15,874 nucleotides of DNA from the IMG/VR virus record IMGVR_UViG_2671180770_000015, one strand, 5' to 3'. Positions 1 through 15,874 of the stretch are shown in pieces. The stretch's first letter is position 1; each line of letters opens with the position of its first letter. The stretch comes from a virus (Duplodnaviria; Heunggongvirae; Uroviricota; Caudoviricetes). Both the position numbers and the translations under genes were made by a program. The notes beneath the pieces are model-generated. The model was not told the DNA's origin, searched no databases, and saw only the letters and a list, made by a program, of their open reading frames with translations.

Positions 1-100
1 ATTCTGAACTTTTGCTTTGCCACGGAATGGTCTGTGTTGTCGGGAGGATGCGTGATCTGATCCTTCAACTCAGCAAAAGTTCGATTTATTCAACAAAGCC
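1..100 (-). mobile_element. Partial IS903-group (IS5 family) insertion sequence, terminal 100 bp only; element body would continue beyond the left window edge
   Basis: Bases 1-100 are the exact reverse complement of 15775-15874. Bases 82-100 are the reverse complement of GGCTTTGTTGAATAAATCG, which I recall as the IS903 terminal inverted repeat. The outward-reading frame encodes ...SVAKQKFR, resembling the IS903 transposase N-terminal region. Recalled, not searched. Confidence 0.7.
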
Positions 101-600
101 TCAAACCTCAGCAAATAATCGAAGAACACATTAGCGGCTCAGCAGCAACCAGTGAGCGTCCTGGTTTTAACCGGTTGCTTGCTCGCCTGAAATGTGGTGA
201 TCAATTGATTGTGACAAAACTGGATCGCCTTGGTTGTAATGCAATGGATATCAGGAAAACAGTGGAACAACTGACCGAAACAGGTATCAGAGTGCATTGC
301 TTGGCATTGGGTGGCATTGACCTGACCAGTCCAACAGGAAAAATGATGATGCAAGTAATTTCAGCAGTCGCTGAATTTGAACGAGACCTTTTACTTGAAC
401 GCACTCATTCCGGGATAGTAAGAGCCCGCGGCGCAGGGAAACGCTTTGGTCGACCACCTGTGTTAAATGAAGAACAGAAACAGGTGGTATTCGAACGAAT
501 TAAGTCAGGTGTAAGTATAAGTGCCATTGCCCGGGAATTCAAAACCTCGCGGCAAACCATTTTAAGAGCCAAAGCAAAACTTCAGACACCTGACATATAA
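101..600 (+). pseudogene. Serine recombinase (PinQ/PinR-like resolvase/invertase family), 5'-truncated at the IS junction; catalytic-serine region missing
   Basis: Frame open from 61 to stop at 598-600, with no ATG/GTG (ORF track starts at TTG 175). Translation [13 protein letters not shown]...VTKLDRLG...[14 protein letters not shown]...GRPP plus C-terminal [18 protein letters not shown] matches the serine recombinase catalytic core and DNA-binding domain, but the N-terminal xRVSTxxQ motif is absent and replaced by IS-derived sequence. Confidence 0.85.
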
Positions 601-627
601 AAAATAATCTCGGTGTGAGATGCTTTA
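601..627. terminator. Bidirectional hairpin between convergent pin remnant and tfa
   Basis: ATCTC-ggtgt-GAGAT stem-loop at 607-621, flanked by an A-run upstream and T-rich sequence downstream. Confidence 0.4.
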
Positions 628-697
628 CGTGTTCCAAGCCCCCTTCCTTGCCGTAAATGGAAAGATACATCTAATTATAGAATTTATATGTTTTACC

Positions 698-1273
698 CTA
701 CGGCAGTGCTGGCCATTCAATATCCTGTGCAGTTGACGTATCAACACGGTTCAGCAATACCCGATACTTTTTCCATGCTTCCAGCAACGAGATTTCTTCC
801 TCCGTTGCAATTTCCAGATCTGCAGCATCCTGAAGCGGCGCAATATGCTCACTGGCTACCTGCATCAGGTTGTTTTTTGTTTCTTCCGCCTCCCGGATCC
901 GGAACAGTTTTTCTGCTTCCGTATCCTTCACCCAAGCTGTGCCGTTCCACTTCTGAAACTCCCCTTTCGGCGATAACCAGGTAACATTTTCCGGTAACGG
1001 ACCGAGTTCAGAAATAAATAACGCGTCGCCGGAAGCCACGTCATAGACGGTTTTTCCCCGATGATCTTCAACGAGATGCCACGATGCCTCATCACTGTTG
1101 AAAACAGCCACGAAGCCTGCCGGAATATCTGGCGGTGCAATATCGGTACTGTTTGCTGGCAGACCTGTATGAGGCGGAATATATGCGTCACCTTCACCAA
1201 TAAATTCATTAGTTCCGGCCAGCAGATTATAAATTTTTATGGTCCGTGCTTGTTCACTCATTCTGAATGCCAT
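698..1273 (-). CDS. tfa: Tail fibre assembly protein Tfa (lambda Tfa-like chaperone)
   Basis: 191-aa [42 protein letters not shown]..., near-identical to lambda Tfa as recalled. Its start codon overlaps the stf stop (TAATG at 1271-1275). Confidence 0.93.
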
Positions 1274-4236
1274 TATGCAAGCCTCACAATATAGTTAAAT
1301 GCGATGTTTTTGACGGTGTTTTCCGCGTTACCAGCAGCGTTAACGGTGATGGTGTGTCCATGTGAACCAATCGCAACGGAGTGCGTATGAGCACCAATAC
1401 TGACAGTATGTGCATGTGCGCCTGCGCTTGCAGCAGTGCCGGACAGCGAGTGGGTATGAGCACCATCTGATGATGTCTTCCCTGCATTACGAGTCTGGCC
1501 ACTACCGCTTGTTGTGCTCATAATCCCCGCGCTTAGATTTGAAATCGCGGTATAACCATTAGGGAAAATGCTCGTGTTCGTGCCACCAAATGCACCGGAA
1601 CTCTTGTGTTGGTGCGCACCGGCACTATTTGCAGTCCCGCTAATACTATGGGTATGCGCCCCGGTGTTATTCGTGGATTTGGTTCCGTAATCAAACGACG
1701 ATGTGTTTTTCGTCCCCAAATCCGTACTGGATGCGCTGGCGCTGTGGGTGTGCGATTTAATGCCGTCCTGTTCCTGAGACAATACGGCACGACCACTGGC
1801 GGGTTTGCCCTTAATCGTCCAGCCACGCATATCAGGGAGCACGCCTGACGGATAAGCGGCTGCAAGTTTCGGGTATGCAGATTTGTCAAAAGTCTGCCCC
1901 TGCATCAGGGCATAGCCAGACGGAACGGTATCTGATGGCCACGGGATTGGTGCGCCAGGCGGATAAAACTGCTCTGATGGCGTATAGAGTGAATAAACTG
2001 TACCGTCCGTTAACCCTTCCGGCTTATTAGCAGAATATGCTGGTGACGTATGAATCGTCACGCTGGCATTACTGGTATAATCCCATTGAATATTTACACC
2101 AGTCGCATAATTTCCGATTGCAACGTAAATATCGTAAGTATCACCAGATGTATTGACCCAGGCAAAATTTGTAAACCCTGTCGATGTGCGCTGCCATAAA
2201 GCACCAGTAATCCCCTTCGGATTACCATTACCTGCACGCAAAACAAGTTCAGATATACCTGCCTGTTGAGGTGACCCCACGTTAAATCCCGCGCCACCAA
2301 TCAACGTAATTGAAACAACAGAACTCGCCTGTGGCATGGTTACCGTTGCTAATTTGAACCAACCAGCACCACCACTGAATGACATTGTTGTTGAGTTAAG
2401 CGTACCAATATCTTTCGGCGTCAGTGTTATATCAGCTGAAAGCGCCTTACCATTCACCTTACGGGCAGAAGGTACCCGACCATTCGCATTATCATTAGCT
2501 GCTTTCACTGCTTTCGGTGTCGCAGCAAGCGTTTCAGATGCGCTGTTGGTTGCACTACTGAGCTGGACAATTCCTTTTTGTGTTGTCGTAGAGTCCTGAG
2601 CAGTATATTTCCCGTTAGCAAGGTCATAGGCTGCCTTTACCGACTTTGGCGTTGCCGCCAGCATTTCAGATGTGCTGTTGGTCGCGTTGCTAAGCTGAAC
2701 TATCCCTTTCTGTGCTGTCGTTGCATCCTGTGCGGTGTATTTCCCGTTAGCCAGCTCATACGCGGCCTTAACGGCTTTTGGCGTTGCCGCCAGTGACTCG
2801 GAAGTGCTGTTAGTCGCACTGCTGAGCTGTACTATCCCCTTTTTCGTCGTGCTCGCATCCTCAAGCGCCACGGCGGATGCAATATCCTCTGCCCGTTTTG
2901 CCGCTGTCTCGGCGCGCGTTGCCGCGGATTCCGCCGTACTTTTGCTCTGAGCTGCCGCCGTCGCACTGCCAGCTGCCTCTGTCGCCTTCGTGGATGCCGT
3001 CGTGGCGCTGCCCTTTGCTGCTGACGCCTGTCTGGTCGCCTCATCTTTTGAAGCAGACGCAGATGATGCCGATGACGCCGCCGAACTGGCGGACGATGCG
3101 GCAGCCGTTTTTGAGGATTCTGCGCTGGTTTCCGACGCTTTCGCGTTCGTCTCGGATGTCTTCGCTGCGGAAGCAGACCTCGCTGCTGCGCTGGCCTGTT
3201 CAGTGGCTTCGCCAGCCTTCGTTGTGGCTGTTGAAGCGGACGATGCGGCGCTTTCTGCCGATTTTCCGGCGGCGCTAGCACTGGCTGAGGCCTGCCCGGC
3301 ACTTGTTGACGCTGCACTGGCAGACGACGCAGCCGCTGTTTTTGAGCCTGCCGCAGCTGAGGCACTCTGTTCCGCTGCCGTTTCAGAAGACCTGGCGTTT
3401 GTCTCAGACGTCTTTGCCGCCTTCGCGGAATTGCCTGCCGCCGTTGCCGAGGAAGCGGCACTACTGGCGCTTGATGATGCGTTCGTTTCTGATGATTTCG
3501 CTGCCTCTTTTGAGGCCGCCGCATCCCGGGCTGAGGTGGCAGCTTCTGACGCCTTCGTGGTCGCGGCGGATGCAGAAGTAGCTGCTGATTGTTGTGACGC
3601 TGCCGCATTCGTTTCTGACGTTTTCGCCGCAGCGGCACTGGTAGCTGCCGCGCTTTTTGAGGACTCTGCAGCAGCAGCACTTTTCGATGCTTCACTGGCC
3701 TTTGTTGATGCCGTTCCTGCGCTGGAAGATGCTGACTGAGCAGATGATGCAGCCTGTCCGGCTGACGTGCTGGCGGCACGAGCTGAGCCTGCAGCATCGG
3801 TTGCATGAGTTGCCGCCTCACTGGCAGATGTGCTGGCATCACTGGCTGACTTCTTCGCGGCTGCCATGTTCTGTGCCACTGCGGACGCGTTACGCGCCAC
3901 CTCTTCCACCATCAGTTCAAAACGTCGCAGAGCCTCCGGACGGGCATCATCCTCCGTCATAGCACCGAGAAAATCATTCAGCGTACCGGGTCGGGAATCT
4001 TCATACACGGTGATGGTCCCGGCATGTGACGGCGGGAATCCTTCCACCAACAGAATAACGCTGTACTGACCGTACTCAACGTCCATGCTGTAACGCCCGG
4101 CTTCATCCGGATTTTCTGAGGCCAGCGTGTTCACCACCACCGCTGTGCTGTTACGTTTTGCTTTCAGCTGGATTGTGCAGTTCTGTACCGGTTTTCCTGT
4201 GCCGTCTTTCAGTACACCTGAAATCTTTACTGCCAT
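1273..4236 (-). CDS. stf: Side tail fibre protein Stf (lambda Stf-like), intact
   Basis: The ORF is 989 aa from a GTG at 4242; the likely true start is the ATG at 4236 ([26 protein letters not shown]...), matching the lambda Stf N-terminus. It has a long Ala/Ser-rich region, three tandem tail-fibre repeats, a His-rich GAHxH region and the C-terminus ...[11 protein letters not shown]. Confidence 0.93.
2476..2871 (-). repeat. Three tandem copies of a ~132-bp (44-aa) phage tail-fibre repeat inside stf
   Basis: Protein repeats ...KGIVQLS(S/N)ATNS(T/A)SE(S/M/T)LAATPK(A/S)VKAA... occur three times, with matching DNA periodicity around 2476-2871. Confidence 0.75.
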
Positions 4237-4247
4237 ATTCACCCCAC

Positions 4248-4273
4248 AAAAAAGCCCGCCTGAACAGGCGGGC
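4248..4273 (-). terminator. Rho-independent terminator immediately upstream of stf (downstream of the lom remnant)
   Basis: Minus-strand GCCCGCCTG-ttca-GGCGGGC followed by TTTTTTGTGGGG; the stem is 4254-4273 and the U-tract is the complement of the A-run at 4248-4253. Confidence 0.8.
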
Positions 4274-4300
4274 TGTCATAACACTGTGTTACCTGGCTAA

Positions 4301-4561
4301 TCAGAACTTATAACCGACACCCACGATGAAACCGTCAGTGCGCCAGTCACCACTGCCGGAGCCTTCATAAGCAATATCAATGGCCACGGATTCGGTCGGG
4401 TTAAACTGCACGCCAGCTCCCCACGCCAGAGACGTGTTGCTGTGGCGACCGTCATCACTTCCGGTCAGCACGTCGTGCGTTTTCCCCTTGTTGTCAGTTA
4501 CGCGGAGATAATCCCCGGAGAAAGTCGACACACGGCTGTAAGCCATACCGATATGCTCCAC
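4301..4561 (-). pseudogene. lom: Lom outer-membrane protein (Ail/Lom family), 3' fragment only (~80 C-terminal residues, no signal peptide)
   Basis: Translation ...SLAWGAGVQFNPTESVAIDIAYEGSGSGDWRTDGFIVGVGYKF matches the lambda Lom C-terminal beta-barrel strands; the N-terminal ~120 residues are absent. Confidence 0.85.
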
Positions 4562-5390
4562 TTAACCGACCACCATCACGGGCCTGCTGTTGCATAAAGT
4601 CCGCTGCCGCTTTTTTCCCAAGGTCATAAACCACCTTCAGGGCAGCCGGACCTATCTGCCCGTTCGTGCCATCGTTATTGATCTCGATGTTGTACTGCGG
4701 GGCAAACATCGCCATACCTGAACCACCAATATCCGCCACAACCCCCAGCTTACCGTCAGCACCACGACGCAGTGGCAGAATGGCTTCAGGTCCAGCTTCC
4801 CCCATCACACCCGCGCCTTTTGCAAAAGCAAAAAACGTCGGACGGTTAACCACCGTGCCACTGTAACGACTCAAATCAGCAGACTGATAAATCCCCCCAT
4901 TGGCATTCAGGGAAAGGCTGCTGAGATCAAATCCCAGTACACTGCCAATCCCTTTTATCGATTTCATCATGGTTGCCTGCGCCAGGATTTTCGCCATATC
5001 TGACAGCACCGAAGAGGTGAAGGATTTGAAGTTGAGTTTGCCGGTAGTGACAAAAGTTGCCAGGCCATTTCCCATGTTGCTGAAGGCTGACGAGAACACC
5101 TGTTCTGCTGTTCCTGCCGTATTGTCTGCATCCACGGTAAAATCCTGAAATGCACGCAGGACTCCGTTTTTCCAGTTACCCTGCACAACTTCAAGCTGTT
5201 GCCAGTAACGGCGATTCTCATTCAGTTGTCGGTTCAGGCTCTCCGTCAGCGCCTGCTCGGCCTTTCTGTAGTCATCCGTGTTATATGTCCCTTTCTGCTC
5301 ACTATCCCGCCTCAACTGCTCCAGCTGTTGCTGGTATTTCTGGCGAAGACTCAGTTGTACCTGATATCGCTGCCGCTGCTGATCACCCAT
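4494..5390 (-). pseudogene. Tail tape measure protein (lambda gpH-like), C-terminal ~280-residue remnant, reading through into the lom remnant
   Basis: Translation ...INNDGTNGQIGPAALKVVYDLGKKAAADFMQQQARDGG... matches the lambda gpH C-terminus. The native stop is missing and the frame runs a further ~17 codons into lom-derived DNA. A stop lies 9 nt upstream of the first Met, so the N-terminal ~550 residues are absent. Confidence 0.85.
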
Positions 5391-5548
5391 ACCTGGTTAT
5401 CTCCCGCAACGGTATTCCCGGCAACCTGCCGGGTGGCAACCGAGACCGCTTTCTGTGCCACACGGTTTATCGCCCATGCGCTGGCCTGTGGCACCATATG
5501 GGTATCAAGGCTGTTCAGATTGCGGATGGCATTCTCAAGCCCCTTCAT
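5351..5548 (-). pseudogene. Tail completion protein (lambda gpZ-like), N-terminal ~45-residue stub running out of frame into the tape measure remnant
   Basis: MKGLENAIRNLNSLDTHMVPQASAWAINRVAQ resembles the lambda gpZ N-terminus (MAIKGLEQAVENL...AMAINRVAS); similarity is lost after about residue 44 and the ORF terminates inside the tape-measure frame. Confidence 0.6.
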
Positions 5549-5559
5549 CCCACACCTCT

Positions 5560-5835
5560 TTACTCAATAAAGATCATTGGCTTACCATTAAAACGTTCAT
5601 GCCGTGTGACCGTCCATTGTTGTCCGTCATAAACAACGCGATCCCCGCGCCGTGGGCGGTATCCCGAAGAAAACACCACCAGAGAGACCGCAGGTCCGGA
5701 CAGAGCATTCAGCTCTGCCAGTGTTTCTCCCGGGATCACAGTCATATCGACATCATTAATCGAGGCTGTCTTTCCCATCTTTCTGACCGTGATAGCATCC
5801 ATACGCGCTGCCAGCCGGGAAAAGGGAGCAGACAT
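5560..5835 (-). CDS. Head-tail joining protein (lambda FII-like)
   Basis: 91-aa ORF; the pattern ...RRGDRVVYDGQQWTV... resembles lambda FII (...LRRGDTLTIGEENFWVDRV), and the gene sits between head and tail genes. Confidence 0.55.
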   Translation of the reverse strand: MSAPFSRLAARMDAITVRKMGKTASINDVDMTVIPGETLAELNALSGPAVSLVVFSSGYRPRRGDRVVYDGQQWTVTRHERFNGKPMIFIE

Positions 5836-6151
5836 TGAGTTTTACCGGCACTTCTTCTGCACTGGTTCCGGCATCTGCCCAGACAACCCCGACCAGCGGA
5901 TCAGAGCCGCTGTTAGTCAGCTGAACTTTTCCGGACTTCAGATAAACCTTCTTACCCGTTTTCATGTCATCCGTTTTCAGCTTAGGCAGCATAAACACAC
6001 CTTCGGTCATGCCGTCGCCTGTTTCACCCTGTGGAATATTGGTCAGCGCCACCGCAAAAACATCACCCACCTGCACCAGATCTCCGCTGCTGATGGCTGC
6101 ACTGGCAACAATCGCCACCGTTTTTCCTTCTTCTACAAAATTCTTTGCCAT
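5756..6151 (-). CDS. Phage head protein, DUF2190-like (putative capsid cement/decoration protein)
   Basis: The ORF track starts at 6196; the likely start is the ATG at 6151, preceded by GGAG (MAKNFVEEGKTVAIVASAAISSGDLVQVGDVFAVA...). Family assignment is from recalled sequence pattern and position immediately after the capsid gene. Confidence 0.5.
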   Translation of the reverse strand: MAKNFVEEGKTVAIVASAAISSGDLVQVGDVFAVALTNIPQGETGDGMTEGVFMLPKLKTDDMKTGKKVYLKSGKVQLTNSGSDPLVGVVWADAGTSAEEVPVKLNVCSLFPAGSAYGCYHGQKDGKDSLD

Positions 6152-6194
6152 AACTGTCTCCGCACAGCCCCGTTCAGGGGCTGATTTCAGGTAC

Positions 6195-6214
6195 AAAAAA
6201 AGCCCTTACGGGCC
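6195..6214 (-). terminator. Putative weak intrinsic terminator just downstream of the capsid gene
   Basis: Minus-strand GGCCCGTAAGGGC hairpin followed by seven T (complement of the A-run at 6195-6201). Confidence 0.4.
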
Positions 6215-6237
6215 ATCAGAGTTGTTGTCTGCGACGT

Positions 6238-8199
6238 TTACGCCGTACATTTCACCAGACCGCGGTGATCAACTGGCGCGACACCGGCGTCAATACGCAC
6301 TTTCGTTGTCACGCCATCCACACTGAAGCCCTCCATCTGATCAATATATGGCGTATCCACACCGTTGAGATAAGCCACTTCAATCGTATCGGAGCCTTTT
6401 GACGCAGCCAGGTAGAAGGTGGTCTGGCTGTTATCATCAAGACGAGGCTCTGCAATAACGGTCGCAAAATCTTTCACCGGGTTAATAATACCGGCGTTAA
6501 TGTCAGCCCCCTTGACACTTGAGGAGCGAATGACCTGGTTAGCAACAGACTCCATCGCCGTCGGTACCAGTACGAACGCAGGACGAATATTCAGATGACG
6601 CTCCCCCTCTTTCTGAACGCGCATCAACTGGCGGGCTTTATCCAGCGATGCCACGTCCATTGCAGCGCTCTCCAGTACGTTTGCATGTTTCGCTTTATCG
6701 AACAGACTTACATTATCTGTGGAGATTTTCGGGTTAGACGTCAGAATGGCATAAACCAGATCGGCAATAGTGGATTTCGCCGCACGGCCCAGTTTCATCG
6801 GGACATCGGTCAGCATATTCAGATCATCATTGATAATGGCCTGACGGGTGATACTGAACAGCTCGCCATAGGTCGCCAGTGCAATAGTGGCCTGTTTATC
6901 TCCGGTGGTGACGTATTTATATTCCGCCCCTTCACGCACCTGACGCAGAGCACTGAAGCCCCCCATACCCACACGATGGGCAATTTTAAAATCAGACAAC
7001 TGACCTTTCCGCGTCCACTGTTCATAGGTTTCAGGGGCATCTTCCCAGCCCTGCAGAATGGCTTTGTTCGCAACATCCAGCAGAATATTACCGAAGTCAG
7101 ACGTACTGTGTGTGAACGCCGCACCGACCATCTGCATCGGGTTATAACTGGAAACCCCAATACCCCGTTCAGTCAGTGACATACGGGCATATTCACGCAG
7201 GGTCATCCCGTTGTAGACATTATCACGTTCGGTTTTTTCAAATCCGGCACGCGCCATCAGCGCCTGGCGGATCCCGTCCCCCACAAAATTACCGTTACCG
7301 GCATAAATATGAGCCGGGGTATTTTTATTGGATGGCGTGGACTCGTGCCCCATCTCGTTCAACAGCTTTTCGCGGGCCTGCTCCAGCGAACATTCAGGAT
7401 CGGCAAGACACTGAGCCTGCAGCGACTGATAACGCCCGCCAAACATGGCAAACAGATCATTAATACCGTTTACACGCGCTTTTTGCTCTGCCAGGACCTG
7501 CGCACGGATGCTGTTTTCATCCACCACGGGTGCTGCTGCTGCCTGCACTGGCGTCCGGGAGGCTGCAGGTTCATCATCCTGTACGCGTGGAGCACTGTTG
7601 CGTGGCGGAGTAATCATGTTTCGAATGGATTCCGGCATCTTTTTAAATTCCTCTGTACGTTTTGACTGAATACATGCCATTGCCTTAACGGCTGGCGTTA
7701 CCTGATCAGCAAATCCATGTGCCAGACATTCGGCACCGGACATCCAGGTCTCATCCACCAGCATGGCAGCAATTTCATCGGTGGTTTTCCCGGTTTTCTG
7801 TGCATAAGCGGGTAACAGAACCGCCTCAACCTTATCGAGCAGGTCGGCATAGGTGCGCATGTCCTCCGCATCACCGCCCGTAAAGCCAAATGGTTTATGA
7901 ATCATCATGAAGGTGTTTTCCGGCATAATGACCGGGTTTCCCACCATCGCAATGACCGACGCCATTGACGCCGCCACACCGTCGACATAAACGGTAATGG
8001 ACGCACCATGTGTTTTCAGCGCATTAAAAATGGCGATGCCTTCAAAGACATCGCCACCCGGTGAATTAATATGGAGATTAATGTGGGTGATATCGCCCAG
8101 TGCATTCAGATCACTGATAAACTGCTTCGCTGTAACACCCCAGAAACCAATCTCGTCATAAATATAAATATCCGCGTCACTCTGGTGACCAGCCTGCAT
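6238..8199 (-). CDS. Prohead protease (ClpP/S14 family) fused to HK97-fold major capsid protein
   Basis: Single open frame 6238-8460. The N-terminal part has the ClpP-like motifs IYIYDEIGFWG and INSPGGDVFEGIAIFNAL; the C-terminal ~400 aa look like a major capsid protein. The likely start is the ATG at 8199 (MQAGHQSDADIYIY...); an alternative ATG at 8331 cannot be excluded. Confidence 0.8.
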   Translation of the reverse strand: MQAGHQSDADIYIYDEIGFWGVTAKQFISDLNALGDITHINLHINSPGGDVFEGIAIFNALKTHGASITVYVDGVAASMASVIAMVGNPVIMPENTFMMIHKPFGFTGGDAEDMRTYADLLDKVEAVLLPAYAQKTGKTTDEIAAMLVDETWMSGAECLAHGFADQVTPAVKAMACIQSKRTEEFKKMPESIRNMITPPRNSAPRVQDDEPAASRTPVQAAAAPVVDENSIRAQVLAEQKARVNGINDLFAMFGGRYQSLQAQCLADPECSLEQAREKLLNEMGHESTPSNKNTPAHIYAGNGNFVGDGIRQALMARAGFEKTERDNVYNGMTLREYARMSLTERGIGVSSYNPMQMVGAAFTHSTSDFGNILLDVANKAILQGWEDAPETYEQWTRKGQLSDFKIAHRVGMGGFSALRQVREGAEYKYVTTGDKQATIALATYGELFSITRQAIINDDLNMLTDVPMKLGRAAKSTIADLVYAILTSNPKISTDNVSLFDKAKHANVLESAAMDVASLDKARQLMRVQKEGERHLNIRPAFVLVPTAMESVANQVIRSSSVKGADINAGIINPVKDFATVIAEPRLDDNSQTTFYLAASKGSDTIEVAYLNGVDTPYIDQMEGFSVDGVTTKVRIDAGVAPVDHRGLVKCTA

Positions 8200-8335
8200 C
8201 CTGAACCAGGAATTATTCTTCGGACTGGTCGTCGGTGTGCTGCGGCTCCTGTCGTTTCGTTGCGGCACTGCTGCCTCCTTTATCACTGGCCGGATCGGTA
8301 TCAAATACCAGATCCAGCTTGCGGTTTTCATCAAT

Positions 8336-9154
8336 TTAGGCCTTGCGCCGACGTTTGACATCATCCGGATTACGACCACCAGCACGTACCCAGTCTGATT
8401 CTGTCGCCGCTCCACCACGAATCTGGATTTTCCAGGCCTCAGCCTCCTTAACAGGGTCAATCCACGGCATCACCGGTCCGGAATACACCGCGGTATACAG
8501 TGAAGAACGGTCAAGATCGCGGGGTAGCCTGATAACACCGGATGCCACAGCCTGTTTCAGCCAGGCACGATACATCGGGCGGGTGACGGCACCAATAAAC
8601 CAGTCCTGCAGGATCAGGTAGCCATCAGTAGACTCAACCAGTTCCTGACGCTGCGCGCTGTAAGTGCCGTTATAGTTGCGTGCCGTACTGGAAAAACTCA
8701 GACGACTGCCCGCCGCCACGGCACGCAACTGACCATTACGAAAAGTTTCAAGGTTAGGATTGGGACGATCCGACTTCACCATTCCGATTTCTTCGCCGGG
8801 TTTCAGATCGTCGTAAATAATGCCTGGCTGAATGGTAAGCTCGCGTTCATTCTCCTTGCTGCCATTACCATCCGGTTCATAGCTCTGCCCGTCGCCTTTC
8901 CGGATGTACATCCCCAGAGCAGCGGCGATCCTTGCTGCAGTCAGCTCAGAATCTTCATACTCTTTCAGAGCACTGAGGCGGATCAGCACACCGGACAACA
9001 AAGACGTCCCGCGCATCTGGTGCAGACGGCGAACAAATTTAAGATGCAGCATTCGCTCTGCATCCACTTCTTTGGTTTCCATCTGCCGCCCGGATACGGG
9101 ACGGCTTTTATACACCAGATATTTTTCGGGACACCCCCAGTCATCAACAAACAC
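8336..9154 (-). pseudogene. Portal protein (lambda gpB-like), C-terminal ~270 residues only
   Basis: Translation ...YSAQRQELVESTDGYLILQDWFIGAVTRPMYRAWLKQAVASGVIRLP... resembles the lambda B C-terminal half (...YSSARASANESWRYF...EEALLRGIIRPP); the N-terminal half is missing. Confidence 0.7.
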
Positions 9155-9186
9155 GCCCTGATTCAGCCTGTTGCTCTCATCACTGG

Positions 9187-10578
9187 TCAGCTGGCCGGAT
9201 CAATTCGCTGGCTCTCCCCGTCGCTGTCACCGCGCAATGACTGCGTGATGTTGTAACGATCAATAATCCAGCGTTCGCCACGGCTGCCATAGCCCGTTAC
9301 CTGAACCACAAAACGGCGATGACGTCCCGCCTGCACATCCACTGTCGCCACAAGGAAATTAACGCCATCCGGCACACTGCGGGAAGGAACTGGCTCTGCC
9401 CGCTGCTCAAGCAATTCACTTTTTCGTTGCTCCATGCTGGCGCGGGGAAGATAAGGTAATCCCCAGTCGGTATTGATAACCGTCTTGAGTGTCTCTTCAC
9501 TTCCGGTTGTCTCGTATTCCTGTTCTGCAGTAAGCAGTTTGTAAACGAGTTGCGAGAGTGTCTGATAAGCAGCTGCCGGACCCTCCATCCAGAATGACGC
9601 AATACGTGAACGCCGGGGATCACCATAACGACTGCCATCTGCATTGATGGATTCACCATCCCGTAACCAGACCCCACGTCCGTTCAGCTCGCGTTTTTGT
9701 TCAGGCAAAATCCGTCCTGAACAGGAAGGACACTGAATATAAGCCGCCTCACTTGCCAGCACAGGATCGGCAATATCACGGAAACCAGCAACCACATCGC
9801 CGCAGGGCTGAAAATACTCACCACAGTGTGGACAGGGCCAGTACCAGCGACGGCGATCGCCACGGTTATAGAGCGACAGGATCCCCGTGGTTGGTGGAGC
9901 CTCATGCGGTGAAGTCCGTCGCCATTTCACATCCTTCACATCCCTGCCGGGGGAACTCTCCACAAGCGTCATACCACTGGACATAAATGTGGTGGTACGT
10001 TTTGAGGCAAGAGAGAAGGCATCCCCCTCACCATCAATATCTTCCGGAAAACGGTCATAATCCGTCAGCGCCACGCATTTATAATCTGATGAAGACATGA
10101 TATTGACTGACGGCCAGCCGATTTTCAGGTAGTTGCCAGCAAGGAATGTTCTGTCATAAACGTTGTTGTCATTTTTGTTCGGACTCAGGCGACTGACCAC
10201 TTCCGGGCTGACGCGAAACGTTCTGGCGAGTCGTTTTTTGGAGTGTTCGCGGGCTTTTTCCTCCGTCATCTGAATGATCAGCATATCAGCAGGATCGCAA
10301 ATCACGTTGTAAATCACCCAGCCGTCAATCAGGCCGATAGTCTTGCCGGTTCGTGCCGGGCCAACAAATATCACTGCGTCGTATTCACGCGAGGCCAGGC
10401 AGTTCATCGGCTCAATAACATACGGTGCCACCAGCGGATCCCACGGGACTGAGTTCCCTGCCCCCATGGGCACCCGCATATACTGAGCAACGGCATCAGC
10501 AACCCGCATTCGTCTCGGTGCGCGAAGGATATAACCTGAATCGGTTCGTGCTGCCTTTGCGGTTTCCTGATTCAGCAT
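9187..10578 (-). pseudogene. Terminase large subunit (lambda gpA-like), truncated to 463 aa (lambda gpA is ~640 aa)
   Basis: WYWPCPHCGEYFQ matches the lambda gpA FHVACPHCGEEQY region, and the ORF ends at ...WIIDRYNIT..., equivalent to about gpA residue 480. The downstream sequence is portal-derived, not terminase. The start overlaps the terminase small subunit stop (ATGA). Confidence 0.8.
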
Positions 10579-13352: not shown

Positions 13353-13541
13353 AAATCCAACGACAGACGGCTGGCATTTAAGTATTGTGAAATATTATCA
13401 AATGTAATCATCATTGATTTACAAAAGATACATTTTGCCCCGAAAGGATTCATGTCAGAAACATCAAAAGATGATGTTCTATACTGGGAACCATGACAAC
13501 ACGGGCATCTAAAGTGAATATGGTTTGTAATATTGTCTACC

Positions 13542-13754
13542 TCAAAGCGCCACTACATGAACAGCGGCAGGACCTTTAGGTCCGTTCTCAATACCAAATT
13601 CAACTTCCTGATTCTCAGTTAATGTTTTGAAATCGTTGCTCTGAATTGCTGAGAAATGGACAAACACATCTTTGCTGCCATCTTTCGGCGTGATGAAACC
13701 AAAACCTTTTTCAGGGTTAAACCATTTCACTAAACCAGTCATTTTGTTAGACAT
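13542..13754 (-). CDS. cspI: Cold-shock protein, CspA family (CspI-like)
   Basis: 70-aa [41 protein letters not shown]... with the RNP1/RNP2 cold-shock domain motifs; symbol assigned by synteny with the Qin lysis cassette. Confidence 0.9.
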
Positions 13755-13920
13755 AATTATTACCTTTTGAAGAAATTAGCCCTTGGGCAGAATGGTCCGA
13801 AAAAAAATATCAGAGAGAAAAACCAACAAGGAAATCTCAAGAGGTACAAATAATAAAATTATAACAATGACTGCTTCAGATAAATTTGTAACAAACCAGA
13901 ACACCATTAACGCATGATTA
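13755..13920 (-). promoter_or_regulatory. Probable long AT-rich 5' leader and promoter region of the cold-shock gene (extent uncertain)
   Basis: About 360 bp of AT-rich non-coding sequence lies between the Rz stop (14117) and the csp start (13754); CspA-family genes typically have long structured 5' UTRs. No promoter hexamers could be placed with confidence. Confidence 0.3.
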
Positions 13921-15774: not shown

Positions 15775-15874
15775 GGCTTTGTTGAATAAATCGAACTTTT
15801 GCTGAGTTGAAGGATCAGATCACGCATCCTCCCGACAACACAGACCATTCCGTGGCAAAGCAAAAGTTCAGAAT
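15775..15874 (+). mobile_element. Partial IS903-group (IS5 family) insertion sequence, terminal 100 bp only; element body would continue beyond the right window edge
   Basis: Begins GGCTTTGTTGAATAAATCGAACTTTTGCTGAGTTGAAGGATCAGATCACGCATC..., which I recall as the IS903 end including its terminal inverted repeat; exact inverted copy of 1-100. Confidence 0.7.

Follow-up and report, generated by a model that had tools for sequence, protein, structure and literature searches.

Very likely recent insertion of an IS903-group element into codon 31 of the Qin prophage recombinase gene pinQ in one Escherichia coli lineage

The window (the whole stretch of 15,874 nucleotides analyzed here) opens with 100 bp of an insertion sequence that runs directly into a serine recombinase gene without its head. 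This is very likely the outcome of a recent, ordinary knockout in one Escherichia coli lineage, in which an IS903-group element inserted into codon 31 of the pinQ gene of prophage Qin. The junction, the missing residues, the orientation of the IS and the empty site in a sister strain can be read directly from the sequences compared. In the proposed course of events, an IS903-group element of 1057 bp would have transposed into pinQ codon 31 with its transposase-start end beside the 3' part of pinQ and its transposase transcribed away from pin. Such an insertion would cut codons 32-196 off from the promoter, the ribosome-binding site, the start codon and the first 30 codons, leaving a promoterless, start-less pseudogene whose frame would remain open only because the event is recent. 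The features at the left end of the window are as follows.

1-100, minus strand: end of an IS903-group (IS5-family) element, 100 bp, transposase-start (IRL) side
58-60, plus strand: TGA stop within the IS, directly 5' of the open chimeric frame (from the translation)
61-102, plus strand: 13 IS-derived codons (61-99) and the junction codon CTC, Leu (100-102) (from the translation)
83-100, minus strand: 18-bp terminal inverted repeat at the IS tip, reading GGCTTTGTTGAATAAATC on the minus strand
101-109, plus strand: predicted right-hand copy of a 9-bp target duplication, TCAAACCTC, whose left copy is expected outside the contig, beyond the IS
101-600, plus strand: pinQ nucleotides 92-591, i.e., PinQ residues 32-196 and the stop codon (499/500 nucleotides and 165/165 amino acids identical)

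The IS part of the window ends with ...CAACAAAGCC at base 100. A multiple alignment of four independent IS copies (YSP8-1, a KPC plasmid, Combat11I9, and MSB1_9D) places the terminus at exactly this base, since all four stop at ...TTATTCAACAAAGCC and continue into unrelated flanks. Some matches extend the IS similarity to 116-125, which is a chance likeness of the flank according to the same alignment. The 18-mer GGCTTTGTTGAATAAATC is found at the element tip at both ends of the window (83-100 and 15775-15792), and it also forms both boundaries of the 1057-bp copies in Combat11I9 (NZ_CP021726.1), MSB1_9D and YSP8-1; the Combat11I9 and MSB1_9D copies are surrounded by 9-bp target duplications. 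Window 1-100 is 100% identical to the IS5-family copy of E. coli YSP8-1 and ~95% identical to IS903B copies (~5 differing positions per 100). Compared with IS903/IS903B (1057 bp, 18-bp inverted repeats, 9-bp duplication), the 18-bp repeat is thus identical and the inner 82 bp are ~95% identical, while the window includes two copies and, unlike a full IS903B, just the terminal 100 bp of each. The transposase gene opens with a TTG at 68-66 on the minus strand and leaves the window after its first 22 codons.

A Megablast search with window 1-1300 in 5,426 complete E. coli genomes yielded matches that span pinQ, tfaQ and stf, and in every one of them, across thousands of genomes with up to 99.8% identity, the pinQ homology starts exactly at base 101. 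The original prediction, which had recombinase similarity beginning right after position 100 at about residue 30 and had assigned the preceding in-frame codons to the IS, was accurate on these points: alignment to intact PinQ locates the truncation at codon 31, where the junction codon CTC (Leu) replaces ATC (Ile31), and 13 codons are IS-derived. The chimeric frame is 179 aa long, continues with PinQ sequence after the junction codon up to the stop at 598-600 and, as had been predicted, has no ATG at its head, the first one occurring at 244. The junction is a true sequence join, and a chance pattern is ruled out.

The allele appears to be private to the source lineage. Neither a 28-mer over 100/101 nor a 140-bp junction query gave a match in the 5,426 complete E. 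coli genomes, the GTDB species representatives or the JGI metagenome contigs. This lack of a second occurrence in any other collection searched, together with the draft state of the contig and the repeat sequence at both of its ends, would also fit an artefact of short-read assembly in which a repeat gave rise to a chimeric join. Such an origin is nevertheless highly improbable, as the break lies exactly at the canonical IS terminus, which is what real transposition predicts, the contig is present in two samples, and assemblers usually halt within repeats and seldom invent joins between unique and repeat sequence. The window is the entire contig CYAV01000077.1 (100% identical) of assembly GCA_001277695.1, a short-read draft. 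At the protein level, the predicted 36-aa N-terminal chimera (MSRIF...KIKPRLC) is absent from the protein collection, as is the 66-aa Combat11I9 counterpart that served as positive control.

Contigs with the same 141-aa TTG-initiated ORF as the window were considered as further carriers of the junction and rejected. None has it, and they represent contig-end truncations, scaffold gaps, hairpin-like artefacts or other insertions. Three draft contigs (L009, L010, and L016) start with an inverted pinQ piece, CGGTTAAAACCAGGACGCTCACTGG, right before TTGCTT; these inverted starts look like hairpin or foldback assembly artefacts and not biology.

The recombinase part is well preserved downstream of the junction. 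It is identical to intact 196-aa PinQ (WP_000086527.1, from locus L001) from K32 to I196, i.e., over 165 of 196 residues (84%, close to the 85 percent estimated beforehand), and the only nucleotide difference from the intact allele, at base 444, is silent. In Pfam, the Resolvase domain (PF00239) matches frame residues 18-127 with profile positions 36-144 of 145 (E = 1.2e-28), the first 35 profile positions being missing, and the C-terminal helix-turn-helix is intact.

448-579, plus strand: HTH_7 domain (PF02796), intact, frame residues 130-173, profile positions 1-44 of 45, E = 3.3e-11

NCBIfam returned only sub-threshold matches to other serine recombinase families and has no PinQ-specific model. 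Residues 1-30 are absent from the window, and with them Y7, R9, the nucleophile S11, Q15 and Q20. The best PDB match of full-length PinQ is Gin (E = 2.7e-29), followed by gamma-delta and Tn3 resolvase (E ~1e-22); in these alignments PinQ Y7, R9 and S11 correspond to gamma-delta Y6, R8 and S10, and S11 also to S9 of Gin. In Tn3 resolvase, S10 is the nucleophile and mutants of Y6, R8, S10, D36 and R68 or R71 have lost recombination, and those of Q14 and Q19 likewise show severe impairment (PMC2794168). Measured against the architecture of small serine recombinases, the frame lacks the N-terminal Y-x-R-x-S nucleophile motif, which the intact alleles have, and retains the rest of the catalytic domain with the E-helix and the C-terminal HTH_7. 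We take the missing 30 codons to be strand beta1 and helix A of the catalytic domain, in line with the known resolvase fold. No recombinase can be encoded from the window because the nucleophile, four further catalytic residues and beta1/helix A are gone, which bears out the predicted loss of the serine motif and of an active invertase. The notion that the family naturally begins at this point is contradicted by 25 full-length relatives.

The gene is pinQ of the cryptic prophage Qin, as indicated by near-identity and by the Qin synteny of the window, in which tfaQ, stf, rzpQ/rrrQ/ydfR/essD, cspI and gnsB are all found. An assignment to pinE of prophage e14 was rejected on the basis of the homologous loci. 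The window represents the left arm of this lambdoid prophage, and two tail-fiber genes follow pinQ.

698-1273, minus strand: tfaQ, tail-fiber assembly gene, convergent with pinQ (Pfam Caudo_TAP; RefSeq annotation of homologous loci)
1273-4236, minus strand: side tail-fiber gene, 987 aa, intact, converging on pinQ

Further to the right are remnants of tape-measure, capsid-protease, portal and terminase genes and then a ydfO-like gene, gnsB, cspI, rzpQ, rrrQ, ydfR and essD. Apart from deletions, the order of sequence matches that of annotated Qin prophages throughout. Relative to L006, an intact prophage of the Qin type, ~12 kb are missing from the window in three internal deletions with junctions at 4543-4549, 5391-5393 and 9189. 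Lost are a stretch from within lom to the tail-tip genes, another that takes most of the tape measure and continues into the tail genes, and part of the portal/terminase region.

The relative age of the insertion follows from a sister assembly, GCA_019551925.1 (L018), which aligns without gaps to window 101-10236 (10,136 bp) and differs from it by 10 mismatches (99.90% identity); at least four more assemblies resemble it. It carries the internal prophage deletions of the window, an intact 196-aa pinQ and the empty target site, which reads GGTTTTAAAA followed by TCAAACCTC and AGCAAAT. A sister with the same deletions and an uninterrupted gene means that the IS insertion is recent and lineage-specific and took place in an already degraded prophage, and the remnant, with one silent difference and no secondary lesions, agrees with a recent insertion. 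The proposed order of events, with the IS arriving after pin had been acquired, is thereby confirmed.

How much of the gene has been lost from the genome is a separate matter. The original prediction called the recombinase ‘decapitated’, and the head is indeed absent from the window; the picture would be the same if the gene were merely split, as either end of the contig includes no more than 100 bp of IS. On the right, 15774 is the last base that matches Qin; it lies upstream of essD in an intergenic region and is followed by a second IS end.

15775-15874, plus strand: second IS end, exact reverse complement of 1-100, adjoining the intergenic region upstream of the holin gene essD

Because the far IS side lies outside the contig, deletion or relocation of the pinQ head looks the same here as a simple split. 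We consider it probable that a simple cut-and-paste insertion took place, that it duplicated the 9 bp TCAAACCTC, and that the genome retains the 5' fragment on the far side of the IS. In that case the first 91-100 nt of pinQ may be separated from the rest of the gene by just the 1057-bp element, and the 5' side of the gene, ...GCAGGTTTTAAAATCAAACCTC, would be expected to be joined to GGCTTTGTTGAATAAATCAGATTTCGGG, the IRR end. An IS-mediated rearrangement via two inverted IS copies, in which the 5' end of pinQ was deleted or moved by ~15.7 kb or more, is the less likely course, although it retains a real chance. Both contig ends are the same IRL-side IS end in inverted orientation, which is the geometry of an inversion or of a replicative intramolecular transposition; two independent simple insertions, however, yield the same picture. 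The IS copy of YSP8-1 has no target duplication, which implies that such rearrangements occur in the IS903 group, whereas the other IS903B insertions in or near pin are simple ones with 9-bp duplications and, between its ends, the contig runs colinear with the sister strain. With an inverted IS copy on either side, the 15.7-kb Qin remnant also has a composite-transposon-like arrangement, the transposase-start ends of the copies pointing inward.

Similar disruptions occur in other strains. Combat11I9 carries an IS903B at 3080-4136 of locus L002, inserted in pin at ~codon 60 with the duplication CCGGTTGCT. As in the window, pin is interrupted there by the same kind of IS in the same orientation, and the two parts of the gene are entered in RefSeq as an N-terminal pseudogene fragment and a C-terminal ORF named ‘recombinase family protein’; the event is independent of the one in the window and lies at a different site. 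In MSB1_9D (L003), an IS903B is located at 2044-3100, just upstream of pinQ, in the same orientation and with a clean 9-bp duplication. This suggests that IS903B-type elements have inserted repeatedly in the 5' region of pin. Other complete E. coli genomes have IS1 next to pinQ. N-terminally truncated PinQ/R ORFs form a 90%-identity cluster of 359 members, and an identical 112-aa ORF is found on 71 contigs elsewhere. Disruption or truncation is a common fate of pinQ, of a kind that is already known, and the contig is already public; knockouts by IS in decaying prophages are routine, and truncated pinQ/pinR ORFs abound in E. coli assemblies.

Several starts and a promoter-like site have to be considered for residual expression of the remnant.

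90-119, plus strand: weak sigma-70-like hybrid site TCAACA-18-AATAAT, only 9/12 consensus matches
175-600, plus strand: longest ORF with a canonical start (TTG), 141 aa, no Shine-Dalgarno-like sequence upstream
262-600, plus strand: candidate residual ORF (GTG start), 112 aa, preceded by AGGA at 253-256, chosen by the gene caller on the source contig

The original prediction had named the TTG at 175 and IS-driven readthrough as possible sources of a DNA-binding fragment. Readthrough is unlikely because the transposase, on the opposite strand, is transcribed away from pin and a plus-strand transcript meets the TGA at 58-60, which closes the frame. The TTG is the first canonical in-frame start, as had been suggested; lacking a Shine-Dalgarno sequence, it is a poorer candidate than the GTG at 262, which, on sequence grounds, is the most plausible residual ORF; its product would retain the E-helix and the HTH together with some of the catalytic domain. 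An AGGA also precedes the ATG codons at 343-349. The hybrid site combines a -35-like TCAACA in the IS inverted repeat with a -10-like AATAAT in pinQ, and 800 bp contain four promoter-like sites compared to 1.2 +/- 1.2 in shuffles, which is weak evidence.

It would thus be conceivable, though quite improbable, that the remnant yields a DNA-binding fragment without catalytic activity, of 112 aa (from GTG 262) or 83-85 aa (from ATG 343-349), which could modulate inversion by other Pin paralogues through binding to Pin crossover sites or through mixed multimers. The HTH_7 and the E-helix region are intact, the AGGA sequences and the promoter-like site over the junction are suitably placed, and the C-terminal domains of Hin and gamma-delta resolvase bind half-sites on their own. 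On the other hand, the native promoter and translation start are severed and the promoter match is weak (9/12), the residual catalytic piece without beta1 and helix A is unlikely to fold, and similar truncated ORFs are frequent by-products of fragmented assemblies and of disruptions. An even more specific version, which we regard as very doubtful, would have the -35 of the IS end and AATAAT drive a transcript for a 112-aa or ~84-aa serine-less fragment of E-helix and HTH that binds the P-segment sites of e14 or poisons PinE/PinR tetramers. If this were true, the phase of the tail-fiber cassette would be biased or locked and T2 sensitivity altered, and the remnant would be a naturally evolved dominant-negative recombinase. 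We infer instead that a truncated product, if made at all, would be non-functional or unstable.

The likely consequence of the knockout depends on what intact PinQ does. Kirigo et al. (NAR 2025; PMC12529663) reported that overproduced PinQ acts in trans on prophage e14 and inverts its 1797-bp P segment, that this inversion creates a chimeric StfE2 and blocks adsorption of phage T2, and that a pinE mutant is locked in one orientation. If this report holds and the strain carries e14, the allele represents a natural loss of PinQ-driven P-segment inversion, for which PinR or PinE paralogues elsewhere in the genome, outside the view of a single contig, could compensate. Its value would lie in being a clean, recent and natural pinQ null allele with a near-isogenic intact sister, relevant to selection on anti-phage inversion in the wild.

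Relative to its closest kin, PinQ and PinR of Qin and Rac (WP_000086527.1), the window has the same residues 32-196 and the same neighbors, and differs in lacking the first 30 codons, the start codon and the promoter, with IS sequence in their place. With the Din-family invertases Gin, Hin, Cin and PinE, PinQ shares the fold and the domain order, and it is 36-39% identical to Cin and other phage invertases. Unlike in Din systems, pinQ converges on the tail-fiber genes and its 5' end abuts no invertible segment. The Fis-dependent recombinational enhancer of Din systems is located in the 5' part of the invertase gene, of which the window lacks the first 91 nt. We found no inverted pair of crossover sites around a segment adjoining the recombinase gene: inverted repeats around pinQ-tfaQ-stf were none better than chance in the window and in the intact locus L001, and the e14 crossover site had no match at up to 3 mismatches.

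Escherichia phage HannyBb (L022), a complete lambdoid phage of 45 kb, encodes a 100% PinQ-identical protein at 6001-6591 in the same convergent position. The gene lies there between the tail-fiber genes and int/xis, with no obvious duplicated tail-fiber cassette. Its carriage by HannyBb means that pinQ is borne by functional phages too and is not confined to cryptic prophages.

One residue within the retained part of the catalytic domain deserves attention.

235-237, plus strand: TGT, PinQ Cys76, at the position of the catalytic Arg71 of Tn3/gamma-delta resolvase (PDB alignments)

PinQ and PinR of E. coli read DRLGC where Gin, gamma-delta and Tn3 resolvase read DRLGR. The equivalent of R68 is present as R73 and the equivalent of R71 is Cys76, both in the window and in intact E. 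coli PinQ. Of 22 distinct PinQ relatives with 78-93% identity, 20 keep arginine, or by a stricter count all but one E. coli cluster (P0024), which has cysteine. To our knowledge, all characterized serine recombinases have the catalytic arginine at the DRLGR position. Judging from the alignments, Cys76 would sit uneasily with the claim that PinQ itself inverts the e14 P segment, given that R71 substitutions in Tn3 resolvase cause a severe loss of catalysis and recombination (PMC2794168). For specialists in recombinases, the cysteine may be more noteworthy than the truncation; it leaves the verdict on the latter unchanged.

Two Rfam matches were observed elsewhere in the window. A full-length IS009 match (RF02111) lies at 732-930 on the minus strand, inside the 3' part of tfaQ and a short way downstream of the pin remnant, on the strand opposite to it (220.9 bits compared to a gathering threshold of 117). 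A cspA thermoregulator match at 13515-13900 on the minus strand (112.8 bits, gathering threshold 78) presumably corresponds to the 5' UTR of cspI, the cold-shock gene of Qin.
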